A stretch of 64,000 bases of DNA from Kiritimatiellia bacterium (GTDB lineage Bacteria > Verrucomicrobiota > Kiritimatiellia > JAAZAB01), in assembly GCA_040767085.1 (NCBI GenBank), contig JAXGPF010000005.1, forward strand, positions 192,001 to 256,000, written 5' to 3'. Made by a program: the position numbers and the translations under genes. Position 1 is the stretch's first letter, and the number at the start of each line of letters is the position of its first letter. Of the stretch, positions 6,352 to 63,865 are shown one piece after another. The notes under the pieces are model-generated. The model saw nothing but the letters and a program-made list of their open reading frames with translations, made no database searches and was not told the origin of the DNA.

Positions 6352-6978
6352 TCAATATTTTGATATTTTACCCTGTATCGTCCGGCATCCCCACACCCCG
6401 GCCAGGTCGGCCGCCAGTTTCTTCAGGCTCATAACCGGATCGTTCCAGCTTTGATGCATGGCATCCACCGCCGCGGTCACCACCGGATCACAATGTTCAT
6501 GATGACTGCCGGCAATGCGCGAGAGAATCTCAAACGCTATGGCGCTTGACCGCAATTCATTTTGCCGGGCGGGATGGGCAAGTGTTTGCCGCAAGCGCAG
6601 AAACAGATGGACCGGCGGAACGCCGGCATCGCGAATCTCCGCCTCCAACCCGAAGGCGGCGACAGTTGACTCCGCCAACGGCCCATCCAGAGTCAGCCAG
6701 TGAAGTGCCCAAACCGTCTGGCCGGCATAATAATGATGCAACATGCCGGAAAACAGGACGGCCGCCTGGTTTTTATGCAATTCCCGCGCGCGGCCTTTGA
6801 TGATAATCGTTCCGGCGCCCGACTGGCATCAGAACAACTGTATGAAGGGTATGATTTTCTTCACCGATTCGCAGTCATGGTCAACCTTGTAATTGCCGAC
6901 ACTGCGCACACCGAACGGAATTTCCGGCGCGGGCGACGGCGCCGGGCGGAAAACATCCTTGTGCAAACTGAACTTCAT
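6352..6978 (-). pseudogene. AraC-family regulator pseudogene
   Basis: Reads MKFSLHKD...PFGVRSVGNY...FIQLF*CQSGAG, with an in-frame TGA at 6829-6831 where Trp is expected; cupin domain present, HTH truncated after LKKLAADL. Confidence 0.75.
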
Positions 6979-7004
6979 CACAGATCGGCCCTTTTGCAAA
7001 AACA

Positions 7005-7522
7005 GACTGTGGCTATGGAATGTCTACCAAGACCGCTTTAAGAAATGCTCGAAGGCCATGCTAGACTTCTACCACCTCAGCCAGCACCTCCATGCCCTCG
7101 GAGCCGCATTGTATGGCGTGGACTCGCCAAAGGCATCGGCATGGCGCGAAAGAATCCTGCACGACCTCAAGCACAAGTCACCAAAACGCTTGTTCAAAAC
7201 CTTGGATCAACTTTTGGAAGCCCCCCCCCTTCCGCCGATCCGCAGCTGCTGGACGCCATCCGCGAACAGAACGCCTACTTTAAAAACCACGCCAACCACA
7301 TGGATTACGCCACACACGCCGCCTTAGGCGTGCCGATCGGGAGCGGCCCTGTGGAGTCCTTGTGCGCCCAGTTCCAGAATCGCCTCAAACGCACCGGCCA
7401 GTTCTGGACTAAAACCGGCTTCGCCGCGCTCCTGCGGGTCACCGTCAGATATTGGAACCGGAAACTCGACTTCCTCTGGCGGGTCGCAGCTTGATCAAGA
7501 TCAATGAATCGCAGATGCGCCC
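7005..7522 (+). mobile_element. ISKra4/UPF0236-type transposase C-terminal remnant with probable right end
   Basis: WLWN...LDFYHLSQHL, then a frameshift in the C-run near 7222-7230 to MDY...PIGSGPVES...RLKRTGQFW; ends near GATGCGCCC (~7522); no N-terminal half. Confidence 0.75.
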
Positions 7523-7626
7523 CTGCGCTATTACGCTACCAAATTGCGATTGACATTTTTCCTGTCATTGTATAAATAAAAAGTGAAAAGTGCAGTTTGC
7601 GCGTGACTTTCATGCTGGAACAGCCT

Positions 7627-8415
7627 ATGCGAAGGATATTTTCCAAGGGGGTGATGATCGCGGCACTGGTGCTGGCATCGACAACGGTCCGCGGAGATTG
7701 GAAAACTAATTTATTATACCGGACGTCTTCCGAGGGCATGCCGTATCGCTTGTTCGTGCCCTGGGGATACGATCCGGCCAACGCCTACCCGGCCGTGTTG
7801 TACCTGCATTCGGGAGGCTCCGAGGGCACCAACAACGAGAGTCATCTGCAGTATGAACTGGCAATGACGAATTTTATGGCTGCCGGAGCTTTCTTGGTGT
7901 GTCCGCAGGCAACGAATGAATATGGCTGGACAGTCCAGCAGGAGGTTGACCGGGCGCACATATGCCTTGTCGAGGTGCAGACTAATTACAATATCAACAG
8001 CCGGCGCTTGTATCTCGCCGGCGTATCCCGGGGAGGCCACGGAACGTGGTGTATGGCGGCAACTTATACAAACACATTCGCGGCAATCAACCCGATGGCC
8101 GCGTGGGGAGACGGCTGGACGAGTTCGCCGTCATTATGGGCGCCTCATCTCATCCATACGCCGGCATGGGCGATGCACAGTTTGGATGACACGGTCATTC
8201 CGTGGGAGTGCGACCAGCACATGGTTGATGAAATTGGATTGGCGATCACAAATGCCGGCGGGAGTGTTAATACAAATCTGCTGAAATTATCCCTTTTCCC
8301 CGCCGCCGGGCATGGCCAGGTATGTGATCGAGGTTATTCGGAAACCGACATCGTGGCATGGCTGTTCAGCAAGGAGCTTAGACGGACCGAGGGCTCGGTT
8401 TTTATGTCTCGATAA
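7627..8415 (+). CDS. Secreted alpha/beta hydrolase (esterase/peptidase-like)
   Basis: Signal peptide, YPAVLYLH, GVSRGG nucleophile elbow, D and H triad candidates; ends GSVFMSR. Confidence 0.8.
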   Translation: MRRIFSKGVMIAALVLASTTVRGDWKTNLLYRTSSEGMPYRLFVPWGYDPANAYPAVLYLHSGGSEGTNNESHLQYELAMTNFMAAGAFLVCPQATNEYGWTVQQEVDRAHICLVEVQTNYNINSRRLYLAGVSRGGHGTWCMAATYTNTFAAINPMAAWGDGWTSSPSLWAPHLIHTPAWAMHSLDDTVIPWECDQHMVDEIGLAITNAGGSVNTNLLKLSLFPAAGHGQVCDRGYSETDIVAWLFSKELRRTEGSVFMSR

Positions 8416-12052: not shown

Positions 12053-13606
12053 TCAGCGAATATTGAATAACACTCCCCGCGGCAGATATTCATAAGCGCC
12101 CATGTCCACCGCGCGGCGGAATCCATCAATCCGCCCGCGGCCATCCAGGTCGGCGCCGCCGCTCATCCAGGACAGATTGGTGCCCGCGTCAATGCAGGGC
12201 GAATCAGCCGTAAGCCGGTAATCATACGCGGCGATGTCCGCGAAAGCGGGATAACTGGTGATGCAGCCGGCGATATCAGTCAGTTTCGGCGAACAACAGC
12301 AGGCCACATTCAGATTGGTCCGCACATGAAAGACGTCCGGATCGAGTGAAACACTGACGGTGGTATTGCTGTAGACGATGCAATTGGTCATGTAATAATT
12401 GGTGGTCGTAAAATAAACGCCGCCGGAATTAGCCCGGTTGGCCCGGTTTTCGACGATGGTGCAGAAATCAACCAGCGCCCCGCTCGGCTGCGCCGTCCAC
12501 TCGCCGCCGTAAATGCCCCCGCCTTCCCGGGCGTTGGCCGGCGCGGAATTCTTGCTGATCAGGCAATTCCGGATGACCGCATACGACGGCCGCCCCACGC
12601 CAATGGCAATACCGCCGCCGGCATTGGCCGCGCAATAGTTATGGCTAATCCGGCTGTTTTCAACGCGATTACCCGCGGCGTATTCAATGTAAATGCCGCC
12701 GCCGTAACCGTCGCTCAGCGCATTGCTGACCACGTCGGAATGCGTGATCAGCGAGACGCCATTCCCCATGTTAATCCCGCCGCCATAAGATCCGCCTATA
12801 TTTGTGGTAATGATGCAATTGCTTACCACTACTCCGTTCAGCACCTGAATCCCACCCGCGCCGTTCGGGCTCCGGTTGCCTTTAATCAGGCAATTGTTGA
12901 TGATGGCTGAATCCCTGCTATAGATTCCCCCAGCGGTGTTGGCGATGTTGGAATTGCCGATAATCTGACAGTTATGCATCACCGTTCCCTGCAAGCGCGC
13001 GCCGCCGCCATAAGTGCCGGAAACGTTCGACACAATCAGGCAATTGGTAATGGCGCCCAGATAGCTGTAAATGCCGCCGCCCGTTGTTCCAGCGCGGTTG
13101 ACCGCCACGGTGCAATTCGCGATAATCCCCGCATTATAGCAATAAATGCCGCCGCCCGCGCCCGCGGCATTGTTGCCGGCAATAATGCAATTGCGGACAA
13201 GCCCATTGGTCAGATAAACGGCGCCGCCGTCGGCCGCGGCATTACCGTTGGTCATGGTGAATCCGTCCACGACGGCATTCGAATGACCGACATAGAAACA
13301 GCGCCCCAGGCCGCCGGCGTCAATCACCGTCCCGGTCGCCCCGGCAAGGGACACAACCTGGACGTCCTTGGCGACGATTATATCAGTCGTTAGGGCATAC
13401 GATCCGTTGCCTACCAGCACCGTGTCGCCCGGCGCGGCCGCCTGGGCCACGCCGTTGCTGATGGTTAACCAGGGGCTGGCCGGCGAACCGTCGCCATCCG
13501 TGTCACTGCCGTCCGTGGCCACGTAATAAGTAGCCGAAAATCCCGTAAAAGCACCCGTCAGCGCCGTTAATCCGATCAAGCAGCTCTTCCGCGCCCATGA
13601 TTGCAT
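12053..13606 (-). CDS. Secreted right-handed beta-helix protein with choice-of-anchor-Q-like C-terminal domain
   Basis: Signal peptide, ATYYVA start, GGGIY/NCxIxxN repeats, SPCIDAG...DLDG..R...VDMGAYE; ends PRGVLFNIR. Confidence 0.85.
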   Translation of the reverse strand: MQSWARKSCLIGLTALTGAFTGFSATYYVATDGSDTDGDGSPASPWLTISNGVAQAAAPGDTVLVGNGSYALTTDIIVAKDVQVVSLAGATGTVIDAGGLGRCFYVGHSNAVVDGFTMTNGNAAADGGAVYLTNGLVRNCIIAGNNAAGAGGGIYCYNAGIIANCTVAVNRAGTTGGGIYSYLGAITNCLIVSNVSGTYGGGARLQGTVMHNCQIIGNSNIANTAGGIYSRDSAIINNCLIKGNRSPNGAGGIQVLNGVVVSNCIITTNIGGSYGGGINMGNGVSLITHSDVVSNALSDGYGGGIYIEYAAGNRVENSRISHNYCAANAGGGIAIGVGRPSYAVIRNCLISKNSAPANAREGGGIYGGEWTAQPSGALVDFCTIVENRANRANSGGVYFTTTNYYMTNCIVYSNTTVSVSLDPDVFHVRTNLNVACCCSPKLTDIAGCITSYPAFADIAAYDYRLTADSPCIDAGTNLSWMSGGADLDGRGRIDGFRRAVDMGAYEYLPRGVLFNIR

Positions 13607-60806: not shown

Positions 60807-62270
60807 TCAGAATGACACAAGGTCCCAGGCGTATATTGCGGCGTCCTCCAGGACAATGCGCGCCACCAGCCGGTGATGCGGGACGGGCACGATCCGCGTG
60901 CCATCGCGCCAGGCGACCTTGGCCGCCGGGCAATCGCCATGCAGAGGGATGGCGTCATCCAAGCCGCTGCGTCCGCTGATCTCGATTTTATCGCCGCGCC
61001 CGGCGCGCGCGAACAACTGCACCCGCACGCAGCCCTGCCGGCCGGTTTCGCAGTTCAGGATCAACTCGCAGGGCCGGTCAAGCGCGCCCAGTTCCAGTTC
61101 CACCACGCCCGCCGGCGCGGCCTTGAACCCGAACATGCGCCAGCGGGGCCAACGGGCAAGGCCGATCACGCGCTGCTCGCCGGAGTCCTCGCGCCGGCGC
61201 TGCAAGTCCGGATCAACCTGCCAGTCCGGGGTACGATCCCAGGCATGGCTGTATTGGTCGGCGGTGACATACATCCAATGCTCGGCGCCGGCCGCAACCG
61301 GAGCGCTGGCCACGCCCAGCCAGCCGGCGGCCCACGCCGGACGATCGCCCCCGATAAACGCGGCGCGCCCCGGCGCATGCAGCCAGCGGTCGCGCGGGCC
61401 GTCCTGGTACGCCAGGGTAATGTCCGACATGCCGTAAATCGCGTAATGCTGCGGCGGGGTCTGCGACAAGGGCAGCCAATGCCGGAAATTCTCGATCAAG
61501 CCCACCAGCCCGGCGCCGGCCGGCAGCAGGCCCATCTTGTAATAATCCGTGGAATTAAATCCGCGCGCCCGGGCGATGACATCGTCGAATTCGTCCGGCG
61601 CCAGGGCGCAGGCCGCCTCGCCCCACCGGCCGCCGCTCAGTTCGGCGGTCCAGATGGCGCGGCGGTGCAGCCCGCCGGACAGCCGGACGAACTTCATGGC
61701 GGCGATGCCGCGGTTCCAGCCGGGATGCCAGGCGCTCGTGATCGTATCGCCGGACAGCCAGCGCGCCTGCCGCGCATCCAATTCCCAGCGCAGGCCGTCC
61801 GCCGAATGCGCCGTGAAAAATCCGCCGGACAATCCCCGCGGGTCATCCCCCGCGCCGAGCAGTTGCGGCGCGTAAACCGTGGCGCGGTAACGCGCCGCCG
61901 GCGGCGCGGTCGGATCAACGAAGACCCCGCCGACATTGAGATTGACGTAATTATTGCCCGCCGGCCCGTCGGACACCAACCCCAGCGCCGGCCGGCGCCA
62001 GGCCAGCCCGTCGTCCGATTCCGCGTAAGCCGTGCGGTACCGGCCGCGTTTCGGGCCTTGCCGGGCAAAATCCGGGTCGCACAGGTACCACATCCGTAAG
62101 ATGCCCCCGTCATGCAGAACGGTTTTCACCTGCACCATCCGGCCATCCAATTCCGGGTCCGGCAGAAACACCGGCACATCATCCAGGCGCGCCTGTCCCT
62201 GGATGAAATAAACCCGGCCCTCCACCAGGCTCAGCCGCCGCATGGTTTCAAAAAACACATTCATGTTCAC
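60807..62270 (-). CDS. Hypothetical protein with GH32/43-like beta-propeller features
   Basis: LRMWY, YAESDDGLAWRRP and HSADGLRW Asp-box-like repeats; 4-bp overlap with the upstream gene. Confidence 0.6.
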   Translation of the reverse strand: MNMNVFFETMRRLSLVEGRVYFIQGQARLDDVPVFLPDPELDGRMVQVKTVLHDGGILRMWYLCDPDFARQGPKRGRYRTAYAESDDGLAWRRPALGLVSDGPAGNNYVNLNVGGVFVDPTAPPAARYRATVYAPQLLGAGDDPRGLSGGFFTAHSADGLRWELDARQARWLSGDTITSAWHPGWNRGIAAMKFVRLSGGLHRRAIWTAELSGGRWGEAACALAPDEFDDVIARARGFNSTDYYKMGLLPAGAGLVGLIENFRHWLPLSQTPPQHYAIYGMSDITLAYQDGPRDRWLHAPGRAAFIGGDRPAWAAGWLGVASAPVAAGAEHWMYVTADQYSHAWDRTPDWQVDPDLQRRREDSGEQRVIGLARWPRWRMFGFKAAPAGVVELELGALDRPCELILNCETGRQGCVRVQLFARAGRGDKIEISGRSGLDDAIPLHGDCPAAKVAWRDGTRIVPVPHHRLVARIVLEDAAIYAWDLVSF

Positions 62271-63865
62271 CGCACATTAAAAAGCATGCCCTGCGCCACA
62301 TATTCATAGCAGCCCATGTCAACCAGCCGGCTGAAACGGTCCAGCCGGGGCCGGCCATCCAAATCCGTTGCTTGGCTCATCCACGCCTGGTTCGACCCGG
62401 AATTGATGCAGAACGAGCCATGGCCGAGCCTGAAATTCGCGCCGGCCGGAGACACAAATTGCGGTTCGGAATCAAAGCTTACGGCAACTTCCGTCAGGCC
62501 GTTGGTCGGCGCCATGCATGAATTAGTAAGCGTTATAACCCCGCCAGCCGACAAGAACCAGTTGGACGAACTCGTGCCGGCGGAATTGCCGTAAACAATC
62601 GAATTATTCAAATTCAGCGTGCCGGTATCGCTGATCCATACACCGCCGCCGACACCGCCGCCATCCGGCGCTGAATTGCCGGCAATCGTGGTATTCCAGC
62701 ATTGCGCCAGGACGGACGCGCCGACATGCAGTCCTCCGCCGCGCCGGTCCACACTATTGGCCGCCTGATTGCCGGCGATCAGGCAATTATATAAGACGGC
62801 GTTAGCATCAAGTTGTATGCCGCCGGCGTGACTAGAGCTGATGTTATTGGCAACCTGGCAATTGCTGAAACACACCCCGCCGGAACCCGATTGGACATCC
62901 AATCCGCCGCCGCCCACGGCTGTGTTTCCGTCAATCCGGCAATTGACAAACAGGGCATCCGCCGCAATATATACTCCCCCGCCGGTGTCGGCACTGCAGG
63001 CATTGGATACTATGTCGCAATTCCAATATTCGCCGGGGCTGGCGAGATATATTCCACTGCCGCGGCCGCTGCTTCGATTGCCGGCGATCAGGCAGTTGGT
63101 AAATACGGCCGTGCCGGAATGTTGCACGCCCCCGGCATATGAGGCATTGGTATTGCATAATATCCTGCAATCATTCACCAACCGGTTGGGCAGCGCGCTG
63201 GCAATGTAAAGGCCCTTGCCATTATTGCCGGATATGACGCAGCTTCGAATGGTTACATTTGACCGCGCAACAATCATACCGCCCACCGGGTTATTGATGA
63301 TCCCGGTGTTTTCAATGAAGACCGATAAATCCTCGCCGTTGAAAGCAAATGAGGCGCCAATACGCACTGCCGGATCGACATTATTGGATGTCACAATACA
63401 ATTTTTTATCCAGGCGCCTTCCCGTTCCACCCGGATGGCGGAACCATTTGCGGCATTGCCGCCGATGACCGTAAACCCGTCCAGCATGGCATTGGTTGAC
63501 GCGCCGGCGGTTTGATTCTGGAAGTAAACACATTGCACGGCGTTGCTGCCGTCAATGAAGGTCTCTTCCGGGCCCTTGACGCTTTGCAACACAATATTCT
63601 TATTAATAATCAACGCGGCCTTCAGGTAGTAATGTCCGTTGGTCACCAGCACCGTGTCGCCGTTGGCGGACTTGACGATGGCGTTGGAAATCGTGGCGAA
63701 AGCCTGGTCCCAACCGCTGGTCCCGTCATGGCCGCTATCCGCGCCGCCCGGGGCAACAAACCAGGTAGCCGCCGACAAAGGGGAAGCCAACAGACCAACC
63801 AGCAGAATCAGCCCTGTAATCGGCGATGAGCAGACACGTTTACAGACGTAATTTTGGTTTTGCAT
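62267..63865 (-). CDS. Secreted right-handed beta-helix protein with choice-of-anchor-Q-like domain (paralogue of 12053..13606)
   Basis: AAGGGGGA RBS, signal peptide, ATWFVA, NCxIxGN/GGG repeats, DLDGRPR...VDMGCYE; ends AQGMLFNVR. Confidence 0.85.
   Translation of the reverse strand: MQNQNYVCKRVCSSPITGLILLVGLLASPLSAATWFVAPGGADSGHDGTSGWDQAFATISNAIVKSANGDTVLVTNGHYYLKAALIINKNIVLQSVKGPEETFIDGSNAVQCVYFQNQTAGASTNAMLDGFTVIGGNAANGSAIRVEREGAWIKNCIVTSNNVDPAVRIGASFAFNGEDLSVFIENTGIINNPVGGMIVARSNVTIRSCVISGNNGKGLYIASALPNRLVNDCRILCNTNASYAGGVQHSGTAVFTNCLIAGNRSSGRGSGIYLASPGEYWNCDIVSNACSADTGGGVYIAADALFVNCRIDGNTAVGGGGLDVQSGSGGVCFSNCQVANNISSSHAGGIQLDANAVLYNCLIAGNQAANSVDRRGGGLHVGASVLAQCWNTTIAGNSAPDGGGVGGGVWISDTGTLNLNNSIVYGNSAGTSSSNWFLSAGGVITLTNSCMAPTNGLTEVAVSFDSEPQFVSPAGANFRLGHGSFCINSGSNQAWMSQATDLDGRPRLDRFSRLVDMGCYEYVAQGMLFNVR

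Follow-up and report, generated by a model that had tools for sequence, protein, structure and literature searches.

A short C-terminal tail closes exported proteins of many folds in Kiritimatiellia and may act as a modular envelope tag

We analyzed a window of 64,000 nucleotides from a Kiritimatiellia bacterium (contig JAXGPF010000005.1, here C24, positions 192,001 to 256,000) and in particular the C-terminal tail of P0001, an exported right-handed beta-helix protein that is encoded there. The genome from which the window derives, termed G000, has 4.08 Mb with 61% G+C and is 95% complete. Overall, tails of this kind close hundreds of exported proteins with many different folds in the class Kiritimatiellia. 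The tail is conserved, it must be located at the very end of the protein, it is interchangeable with other C-terminal modules, it is present on unrelated folds, and it is restricted to part of this one class. An original prediction, made from the sequence of the window alone, had proposed a lineage-restricted C-terminal signal on exported proteins that occupies the slot taken elsewhere by PEP-CTERM signals. The equivalence of this slot, the dependence on a free C-terminus and the presence of the tail on unrelated folds in other genomes all support the core of that proposal. What the tail does is a matter of interpretation, and we see an even chance that it is a modular free-C-terminus tag of Sec-exported Kiritimatiellia proteins that docks as a beta-strand onto an envelope partner.

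Two beta-helix proteins in the window share a tail that lies beyond their last domain

The three open reading frames (ORFs) on which the original prediction was built are present and end as it had described, in ...PRGVLFNIR, ...AQGMLFNVR and ...TEGSVFMSR. The first two belong to beta-helix proteins with the following features (coordinates are those of the window; pLDDT is the predicted local distance difference test score).

12053..13606, minus strand: exported right-handed beta-helix protein P0001, 517 residues (sequence; AlphaFold2 model with a pLDDT of 90)
13532..13606, minus strand: P0001 signal peptide, approximately residues 1-25 (read from the sequence; helix 2-19 in the model)
12086..12220, minus strand: choice-of-anchor Q domain, P0001 residues 463-507 (NF041518, 30.4 bits with a cut-off of 25, profile positions 17-57 of 58)
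12053..12082, minus strand: P0001 C-terminal tail, stop codon plus the last nine codons, P-R-G-V-L-F-N-I-R
62267..63865, minus strand: exported beta-helix protein 2, 532 residues from the Met chosen in the original prediction, with the frame open to the window end
~63770-63865, minus strand: signal peptide of beta-helix protein 2 (sequence)
62300..62437, minus strand: choice-of-anchor Q domain, residues 477-522 of beta-helix protein 2 (NF041518, 23.8 bits, slightly below the 25-bit cut-off)
62267..62296, minus strand: tail of beta-helix protein 2, stop codon plus the last nine codons, A-Q-G-M-L-F-N-V-R (19.0 bits on the tail matrix described below)

On the same matrix the P0001 tail scores 21.4-21.9 bits. 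The solved folds nearest to the P0001 model are PL6/PL9-type lyases and other beta-helices, all at low identity, and the first beta-helix strand, T-Y-Y-V, follows directly after the signal peptide (model strand 26-29). Both window proteins and 55 paralogues end in a choice-of-anchor Q domain, the NCBI name of which implies that varying anchors follow it. The domain of P0001 closes with ...D-M-G-A-Y-E-Y, and in both beta-helix proteins the NF041518 profile stops one residue past Y-E-Y and does not include the tail. Thus, the last nine or ten residues are located outside of any model. The original prediction had suggested a search for an existing sorting model; whole-protein scans of the window proteins at E <= 0.01 returned no NCBIfam model that covers the tail.

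The tail closes a large paralogous family in the genome

Genes of G000 were represented by 2,740 non-overlapping ORFs of at least 80 residues chosen by codon-usage log-odds, a crude set that covers 85% of the genome. The regular expression given in the original prediction matches 33 of these 2,740 genes and 41 of the 15,655 raw ORFs of at least 80 residues. An iterated nine-residue position matrix finds 56 C-termini scoring at least 10 bits versus 0.2 expected from internal 9-mers. The resulting consensus is [Pro/basic linker]-G-[TASM]-h-h-x-h-[R>H>K>Q]-stop, where h is a hydrophobic residue.

The motif D-[ILM]-G-[AC]-[YF]-E occurs near the end of 58 proteins in G000, 57 of which are closed by the tail, and the stop codon is located exactly 11 residues past D-x-G-x-Y-E in 54 of the 58. 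Among the 57 tails, Gly is at position -7 in 53, followed by T/A/M/S/V at -6, M/L/I at -5, F/I/L/Y at -4, a mainly polar residue at -3 and L/V/I/F at -2. The terminal residue is Arg in 38 tails, His in 10, Lys in 7 and Gln in 2, and P-x-G is present in about half of the copies. Fifty full-length paralogues have a median identity of 34%, and when they are compared in pairs, the physicochemical class of the last seven residues is retained in 82% of cases. The tails of both beta-helix proteins in the window are therefore far beyond chance, so this part of the predicted three-protein motif stands, whereas the third ending, that of a hydrolase, is a weak match that is taken up below.

Altogether, 57 of the 59 tail carriers in G000 are paralogous signal-peptide beta-helix proteins with a choice-of-anchor Q end, and the other two are unrelated exported proteins. 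A signal-peptide heuristic flagged 46 of the 58 family members versus 788 of the 2,740 genes overall; visual inspection of the 12 unflagged members shows a signal peptide in about half, and the others are fragments or of uncertain start. In their mature form the beta-helix paralogues open with a conserved strand, x-T-[YW]-[YFH]-V.

The tail is more than the last strand of the choice-of-anchor Q domain

The tail could be nothing more than a terminal strand that closes or caps the choice-of-anchor Q / beta-helix C-terminal domain, with no role in signalling. This explanation draws on the register, which is fixed at 11 residues in nearly all family members, and on the concentration in one family of 57 of 59 carriers in G000 and of all 52 real carriers among the 70 matches examined in the same-genus genome G001. 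The homologues of P0001 indicate otherwise. Specifically, 70 of 119 homologues have the tail (at least 8 bits) and 8 have a weaker form of it, whereas 9 have a PEP-CTERM-like signal right behind the same Y-E-[YF] and 10 have an extra C-terminal domain ending in F-Y-R-[VLI]. The remaining 22 are varied, with several being tail variants that lack the final basic residue. Since homologues swap the tail for a PEP-CTERM signal or for another domain, the choice-of-anchor Q domain must be complete without it. The spacer in these homologues is 11-14 residues long and Pro-rich. Note that the extra domain, which has about 80 residues and ends in F-Y-R-[VLI]-x-V, is found in P0014, P0015, P0029, P0051, P0052, P0077, P0086, P0091, P0104 and P0113.

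A second line of evidence is provided by G035, a genome from another Kiritimatiellia family, where choice-of-anchor Q motifs occur both at C-termini and inside of giant proteins. All ten C-terminal copies are followed by G-[TA]-hydrophobic(4)-R-stop, and two further motifs near locus ends that were dropped by a length filter look alike. In contrast, a tail-like 9-mer follows only 1 of the 14 internal copies, leaving 13 without one. The tail pattern in G035 was judged by eye, as the matrix trained on G000 gives only five of the ten at least 8 bits, a result of the G035 tails being hydrophobic at -3. The giant open frames of G035 (1,000-2,400 residues, for example L109 and L133) are composed of serial beta-helix and choice-of-anchor Q units with PKD-like stretches between them.

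The structure models also separate the tail from the domain. AlphaFold2 leaves the tail of P0001 unpacked, with residues 511-517 having a mean pLDDT of 69 and no strand. In an unrelated carrier, an FGE-like protein described below, the entire extension that ends in the tail (residues 539-566) is below a pLDDT of 50 in a model that had only five supporting sequences. Together with the NF041518 profile, which stops before the tail, and with the presence of the tail on LamG, discoidin, PATR, FGE-like and other proteins, these results make a closing strand unlikely as the full explanation. The tail is more than the last strand of the choice-of-anchor Q domain.

The tail is restricted to part of the Kiritimatiellia and is found there on unrelated folds

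To follow the tail across the phylum, we scanned 301 genomes with a DNA pattern that encodes G-T-h-h-x-h-R-stop and, as a control, with its reverse; figures given here are matches/control. The pattern is enriched in G000 (15/0), in G001 (20/0), in G035 (47/2), in G298 (39/1) and in G320 (16/0). It is also enriched in family f24, namely in G107 (32/0), G224 (33/0), G286 (24/1), G116 (22/2), G236 (20/1), G239 (20/1), G101 (15/0), G196 (11/0), G184 (10/0) and G227 (11/3). Other Kiritimatiellia families, four other genomes of the family to which G000 belongs and about 200 genomes of other classes are at background level. The tail-poor groups of the class comprise families f8, f16, f17, f18, f20, f21 and f25 and, within the family of G000, genera g5 and g6. 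An earlier, looser DNA pattern gave the same leading genomes with more noise. A pattern with F at -4 was weakly enriched in four genomes of other classes, and we discarded these matches as they have the look of T-rich chance, with one of the four genomes having no choice-of-anchor Q match.

The identity of the carriers differs among genomes. Examination of 70 of the 95 matches to a looser pattern in G001 revealed 52 choice-of-anchor Q proteins, 12 short ORFs, 4 that end in TGG and 2 seemingly spurious frames, with no convincing carrier from another family among them. A different result was obtained with G298, a genome of another Kiritimatiellia family, where 30 of the 39 pattern matches were inspected. 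Seven of these have the choice-of-anchor Q motif, and three further beta-helix proteins have a different end. Among the remaining 20 there are three PATR proteins and one each with Laminin_G_3, F5/8 type C, PKD only and Flg_new_2, as well as one 36-residue ORF; the last 12 have no Pfam hit within the scanned stretch of at most 507 residues. The LamG and discoidin carriers are complete and both have a signal peptide. The presence of the tail on unrelated folds in G298 indicates that, within the class, it behaves like a transferable C-terminal module. Thus, the expectation that the tail would extend beyond a single protein family comes close to failing in G000 and G001 but holds in G298.

Carriers outside the beta-helix family in G000

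The matrix trained on the beta-helix family identifies two carriers in G000 from outside of that family, versus 0.13 expected at that score. A further match on contig C15 is a degenerate member of the beta-helix family.

C26:201152-202852: FGE-sulfatase-like carrier P0121, 566 residues (PF03781; signal peptide)
C11:27863-28663: second non-family carrier, 266 residues (weak DUF4465 match; signal peptide)

Most of 120 FGE-like homologues stop within a few residues of ...R-x-A-P. Only 4 of the 120 (the query included) have a further extension of roughly 40 residues that leads up to the tail, which reaches at least 8 bits in 2 of them, and a fifth such protein emerged subsequently. In the FGE-like carriers P0121, P0130, P0202, P0227 and P0243, a G-G-[AP]-Y-D-G-W motif precedes the tail by 10-20 residues. 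The motif also starts each internal repeat of P0244, a repeat protein of neither family that ends in the tail and in which the C-terminal piece repeats the start of the repeat unit. The tail may form the second of two strands in a small module. A wide spread of such a module was not seen, as a profile of the FGE-like extension run against longer proteins matched only 6 proteins. Regarding the 266-residue carrier, a single close relative (61% identity) was found among 1.84 billion representatives; it retains P-P-x-G-S-L-F-S-I, but has Tyr as the terminal residue.

The hydrolase ending can be explained by chance

The third protein of the original prediction was put forward as evidence that the tail is independent of fold.

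7597..8415, plus strand: exported alpha/beta hydrolase (esterase / polyhydroxybutyrate (PHB)-depolymerase-like), 272 residues (tail 0.9 bits)

Its last nine residues and stop codon (8386-8415, ending ...TEGSVFMSR) loosely resemble the tail, and its matches to esterase / PHB-depolymerase models are weak. Measured with the matrix trained on the beta-helix family only, the ending scores 0.9 bits and ranks 7 of 2,682 other proteins, and it has Ser at a position where 56 of the 57 family tails have a hydrophobic residue. As the window has about 50 genes, a single chance match of this type is not unlikely. The hydrolase match is therefore indistinguishable from chance and cannot bear the argument for independence of fold; as a third carrier the hydrolase is at best a candidate. 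The best homologues of the hydrolase in 40 relatives have at most 37% identity and stop 7-9 residues earlier, directly after the helix ...W-L-F-x-Q-basic-basic, which indicates that the nine extra residues are an extension. Extensions of this kind vary freely in the hydrolase family, and this one fits an added tail without proving it. No close orthologue in which conservation of the ending could be seen was present in the 40 relatives, including those of the same genus. Directly upstream (6700-7494, plus strand) there are overlapping ORFs that resemble remnants of a transposase gene, which could relate to the isolation of this hydrolase.

The tail differs from known sorting systems

One close parallel is the PEP-CTERM/exosortase system (TIGR02595 / PF09721). 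As with PEP-CTERM, the tail is located at the extreme C-terminus of Sec-exported surface-type proteins, and homologues have PEP-CTERM signals in exactly its place after the choice-of-anchor Q domain. Its build resembles a three-part signal in miniature (P-x-G, hydrophobic residues and a basic residue), and in some genomes it is found in a wide range of unrelated families. It differs in having no P-E-P motif, one basic residue instead of a cluster, and only four to five hydrophobic residues where PEP-CTERM has a helix of about 20, with the whole tail being only 7-9 residues long. A stretch of four to five hydrophobic residues cannot span a membrane, in agreement with the original prediction that no transmembrane helix is involved. 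A regular-expression scan of the 2,740 G000 genes found no PEP-CTERM-like ends, and exosortase (PF09721) had no match in G000, at its 95% completeness, and none in the six genomes of its family (f1). In contrast, exosortase is present in all 94 other sampled Kiritimatiellia genomes, including tail-rich ones. This distribution suggests that the PEP-CTERM system was lost throughout f1. The occurrence of the tail both without and alongside exosortase indicates that it neither needs exosortase nor simply replaces it.

The beta-signal of outer-membrane proteins, which is read by the barrel assembly machinery (BAM), has a similar length with a Gly about six residues before a hydrophobic, strand-forming C-terminal end, and is presumed to act by strand addition. 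The tail is also short, led by Gly and a hydrophobic strand at the very C-terminus, but it ends in Arg/His/Lys rather than in Phe/Trp/Tyr, and its carriers are soluble beta-helix, LamG, discoidin and other proteins rather than barrels. The outer-membrane proteins of G000, BamA included, end in a canonical Phe. G000 has one Omp85 gene, and no match was obtained there for a TpsB-type transporter (PF03865) or for the GspC HR domain (PF11356).

The tail also differs from other known C-terminal elements. The C-terminal domain (CTD) of type IX secretion is a folded domain of about 70-100 residues known from Bacteroidota. Like the tail, it is shared by a wide range of otherwise unrelated exported enzymes and adhesins and is among the modules that can follow choice-of-anchor domains, but the tail has 7-9 residues without modelled secondary structure and is found in a bacterium of the Planctomycetota-Verrucomicrobiota-Chlamydiota (PVC) group. 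Profiles for SprA_N (PF14349) and peptidase C25 (PF01364) had no match in G000, and neither matched any control genome. Type I secretion substrates have no N-terminal Sec signal peptide, which tail carriers do have. Finally, peptidoglycan attachment of the Lpp type uses an invariant C-terminal Lys as the attachment residue, whereas Lys is terminal in just 7 of the 57 tails.

Genomic context and candidates for a partner

The 57 carrier genes of the beta-helix family are scattered over G000 in long co-directional operons with large exported proteins. Their neighbors code for GH20-like, acetyl-xylan-esterase-like and ceramidase-like enzymes as well as for AraC- and LacI-type regulators. This operon context, together with the PL6/PL9-like folds, suggests that the G000 carriers are probably glycan-active or glycan-binding envelope proteins. 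The paralogues are mostly single, with only one tandem of three (C2:101032-105837).

Two other groups of genes are recurrent neighbors. Exported proteins of about 1,060-1,100 residues, with approximately 45 paralogues genome-wide, adjoin many carriers; one of these exported proteins starts at position 64026 in window numbering (C24:256026-259202). They have a conserved ending of their own, ...[LV]-E-x-G-x-x-P-T-[ED]-[FY]-[ED]-[EP], which looks like the end of a carbohydrate-binding module. Copies of a 422-residue ORF that share the same first 50 and last 20 residues are also located near carriers (C22:85721-86989, C24:42812-44080, C2:95382-96650, C6:48207-49475, C22:390757-392025 and others), as are several copies of a 411-residue ORF; these are probably insertion-sequence transposases.

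The original prediction had suggested phylogenetic profiling as a route to a partner, and two candidates that were profiled in this manner were both rejected. The first, a signal-peptide protein of about 430 residues that adjoins several carriers, is present in only 4 of 301 genomes (this genus and two unrelated ones) and is not found in the other tail-rich families. The second, the second S41 (Ctp-like) protease with a PDZ domain, occurs in tail-poor relatives, and no copy was found in f24 (0 of 12 genomes) or in G035. Altogether, the PDZ proteins of G000 are one DegP-like protein, two S41 Ctp-like proteins and RseP.

A model for the tail and its alternatives

In the mechanism that we envisage, the tag would be composed of a short flexible linker rich in Pro or basic residues, a near-invariant Gly that may serve as a hinge, a small residue that is mostly Thr, a stretch of four to five residues that would form the hydrophobic face of one beta-strand, and at the end a basic residue whose carboxylate is free. 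Cleavage of the signal peptide would leave a folded protein that exposes an unpacked C-terminal strand. A partner in the periplasm or the outer membrane could then bind this strand by beta-strand addition and would retain, display or release the carrier. The tag would have a role similar to the one that PEP-CTERM plays in homologues, but would involve neither a membrane-spanning step nor exosortase. We infer the reading by a partner, the addition of the strand and the outcome in sorting or anchoring from the position, composition and distribution of the tail. A more specific version is that the class has an undescribed sorting route in which a seven-residue G-T-hydrophobic(4)-Arg-COOH tag on folded periplasmic proteins is read through strand addition by a dedicated outer-membrane or periplasmic receptor, which would direct dozens of glycan-degrading and adhesin-like proteins with many different folds to the surface or the medium. 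We advance this version tentatively, as possible but short of an even chance.

Several observations weigh against the tail being a docking tag. The terminal residue (R, H, K, Q and occasionally Y) is loose for the recognition site of an enzyme, and neither of the two candidates that were profiled follows the distribution of the tail as a partner should. Only two carriers in G000 are from outside of the beta-helix family. The near-fixed register (11 residues in 54 of 58) and the near-monopoly of one family in G000 and its genus would also be expected of a family-specific terminal strand. In addition, the low confidence of the FGE-like extension in the structure model may merely reflect its five supporting sequences.

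A second alternative is that the tail is not an address for sorting but a strand for intermolecular self-assembly, with edge-strand addition, for example head to tail, giving rise to fibres, sheets or an adhesive layer. The fully hydrophobic face rich in beta-branched residues, as in strand-exchange motifs, favors such assembly, as does the strand with which the mature beta-helix N-terminus directly begins. The C-terminal piece of P0244 that repeats the start of its own internal repeat unit points in the same direction. Carriers with other folds have unrelated N-termini, which speaks against a common head-to-tail contact, and a complex prediction with two copies of P0001 residues 25-517 gave no verdict for or against self-association. 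We consider self-assembly improbable as the function of the tail.

PDZ domains bind their ligands as a short strand with a free C-terminus, and the tail has both properties. It could thus be a processing or quality-control site at which a periplasmic protease with a PDZ domain, of the Ctp/Prc or DegP type, trims, activates or degrades the carrier, and proteases of these types are encoded in G000. However, such proteases are near-universal while the tail is patchy, the S41 protein that was profiled does not follow the tail, and PDZ ligands of Ctp/DegP-type proteases end in hydrophobic residues, not in Arg. These points leave a protease site with a rather small likelihood. Finally, coincidence or common descent of two paralogues, suggested by two of the three window examples being paralogous and by the hydrolase match being within chance, holds for the hydrolase only and is very improbable overall, being refuted for the beta-helix tails by the excess of high-scoring C-termini, by unrelated folds in several families of the class and by tails that are far better conserved than the rest of the paralogues.

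Implications for the Kiritimatiellia

Full-text literature searches, in what they reached of the published texts, returned no description of such a tail and no publication that combines Kiritimatiellia with PEP-CTERM. To our knowledge, the known C-terminal sorting tags fall into three kinds, namely membrane signals in three parts that sortase-like enzymes cleave, folded domains as in type IX secretion, and parts of barrels. If the tag is read by a dedicated receptor, then this would be the first case in which soluble proteins of a diderm bacterium are exported or anchored through a short linear C-terminal signal that needs neither a sortase-type membrane enzyme nor a folded C-terminal domain.

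The cell envelope and secretion of the PVC group are poorly understood, and Kiritimatiellia are important degraders of sulfated and complex polysaccharides. A seven-residue soluble tag on up to about 50 proteins per genome would point to a new component of the PVC-group envelope, and it would provide a simple sequence rule for predicting which glycan-degrading proteins of Kiritimatiellia are secreted or located at the surface. The tail could also be a small handle for surface display. In G000 the tag is used almost solely on a 57-member beta-helix family in glycan-degradation operons. Even if the tail is an assembly strand instead, it would still mark a coherent set of envelope proteins that are now annotated as unrelated.

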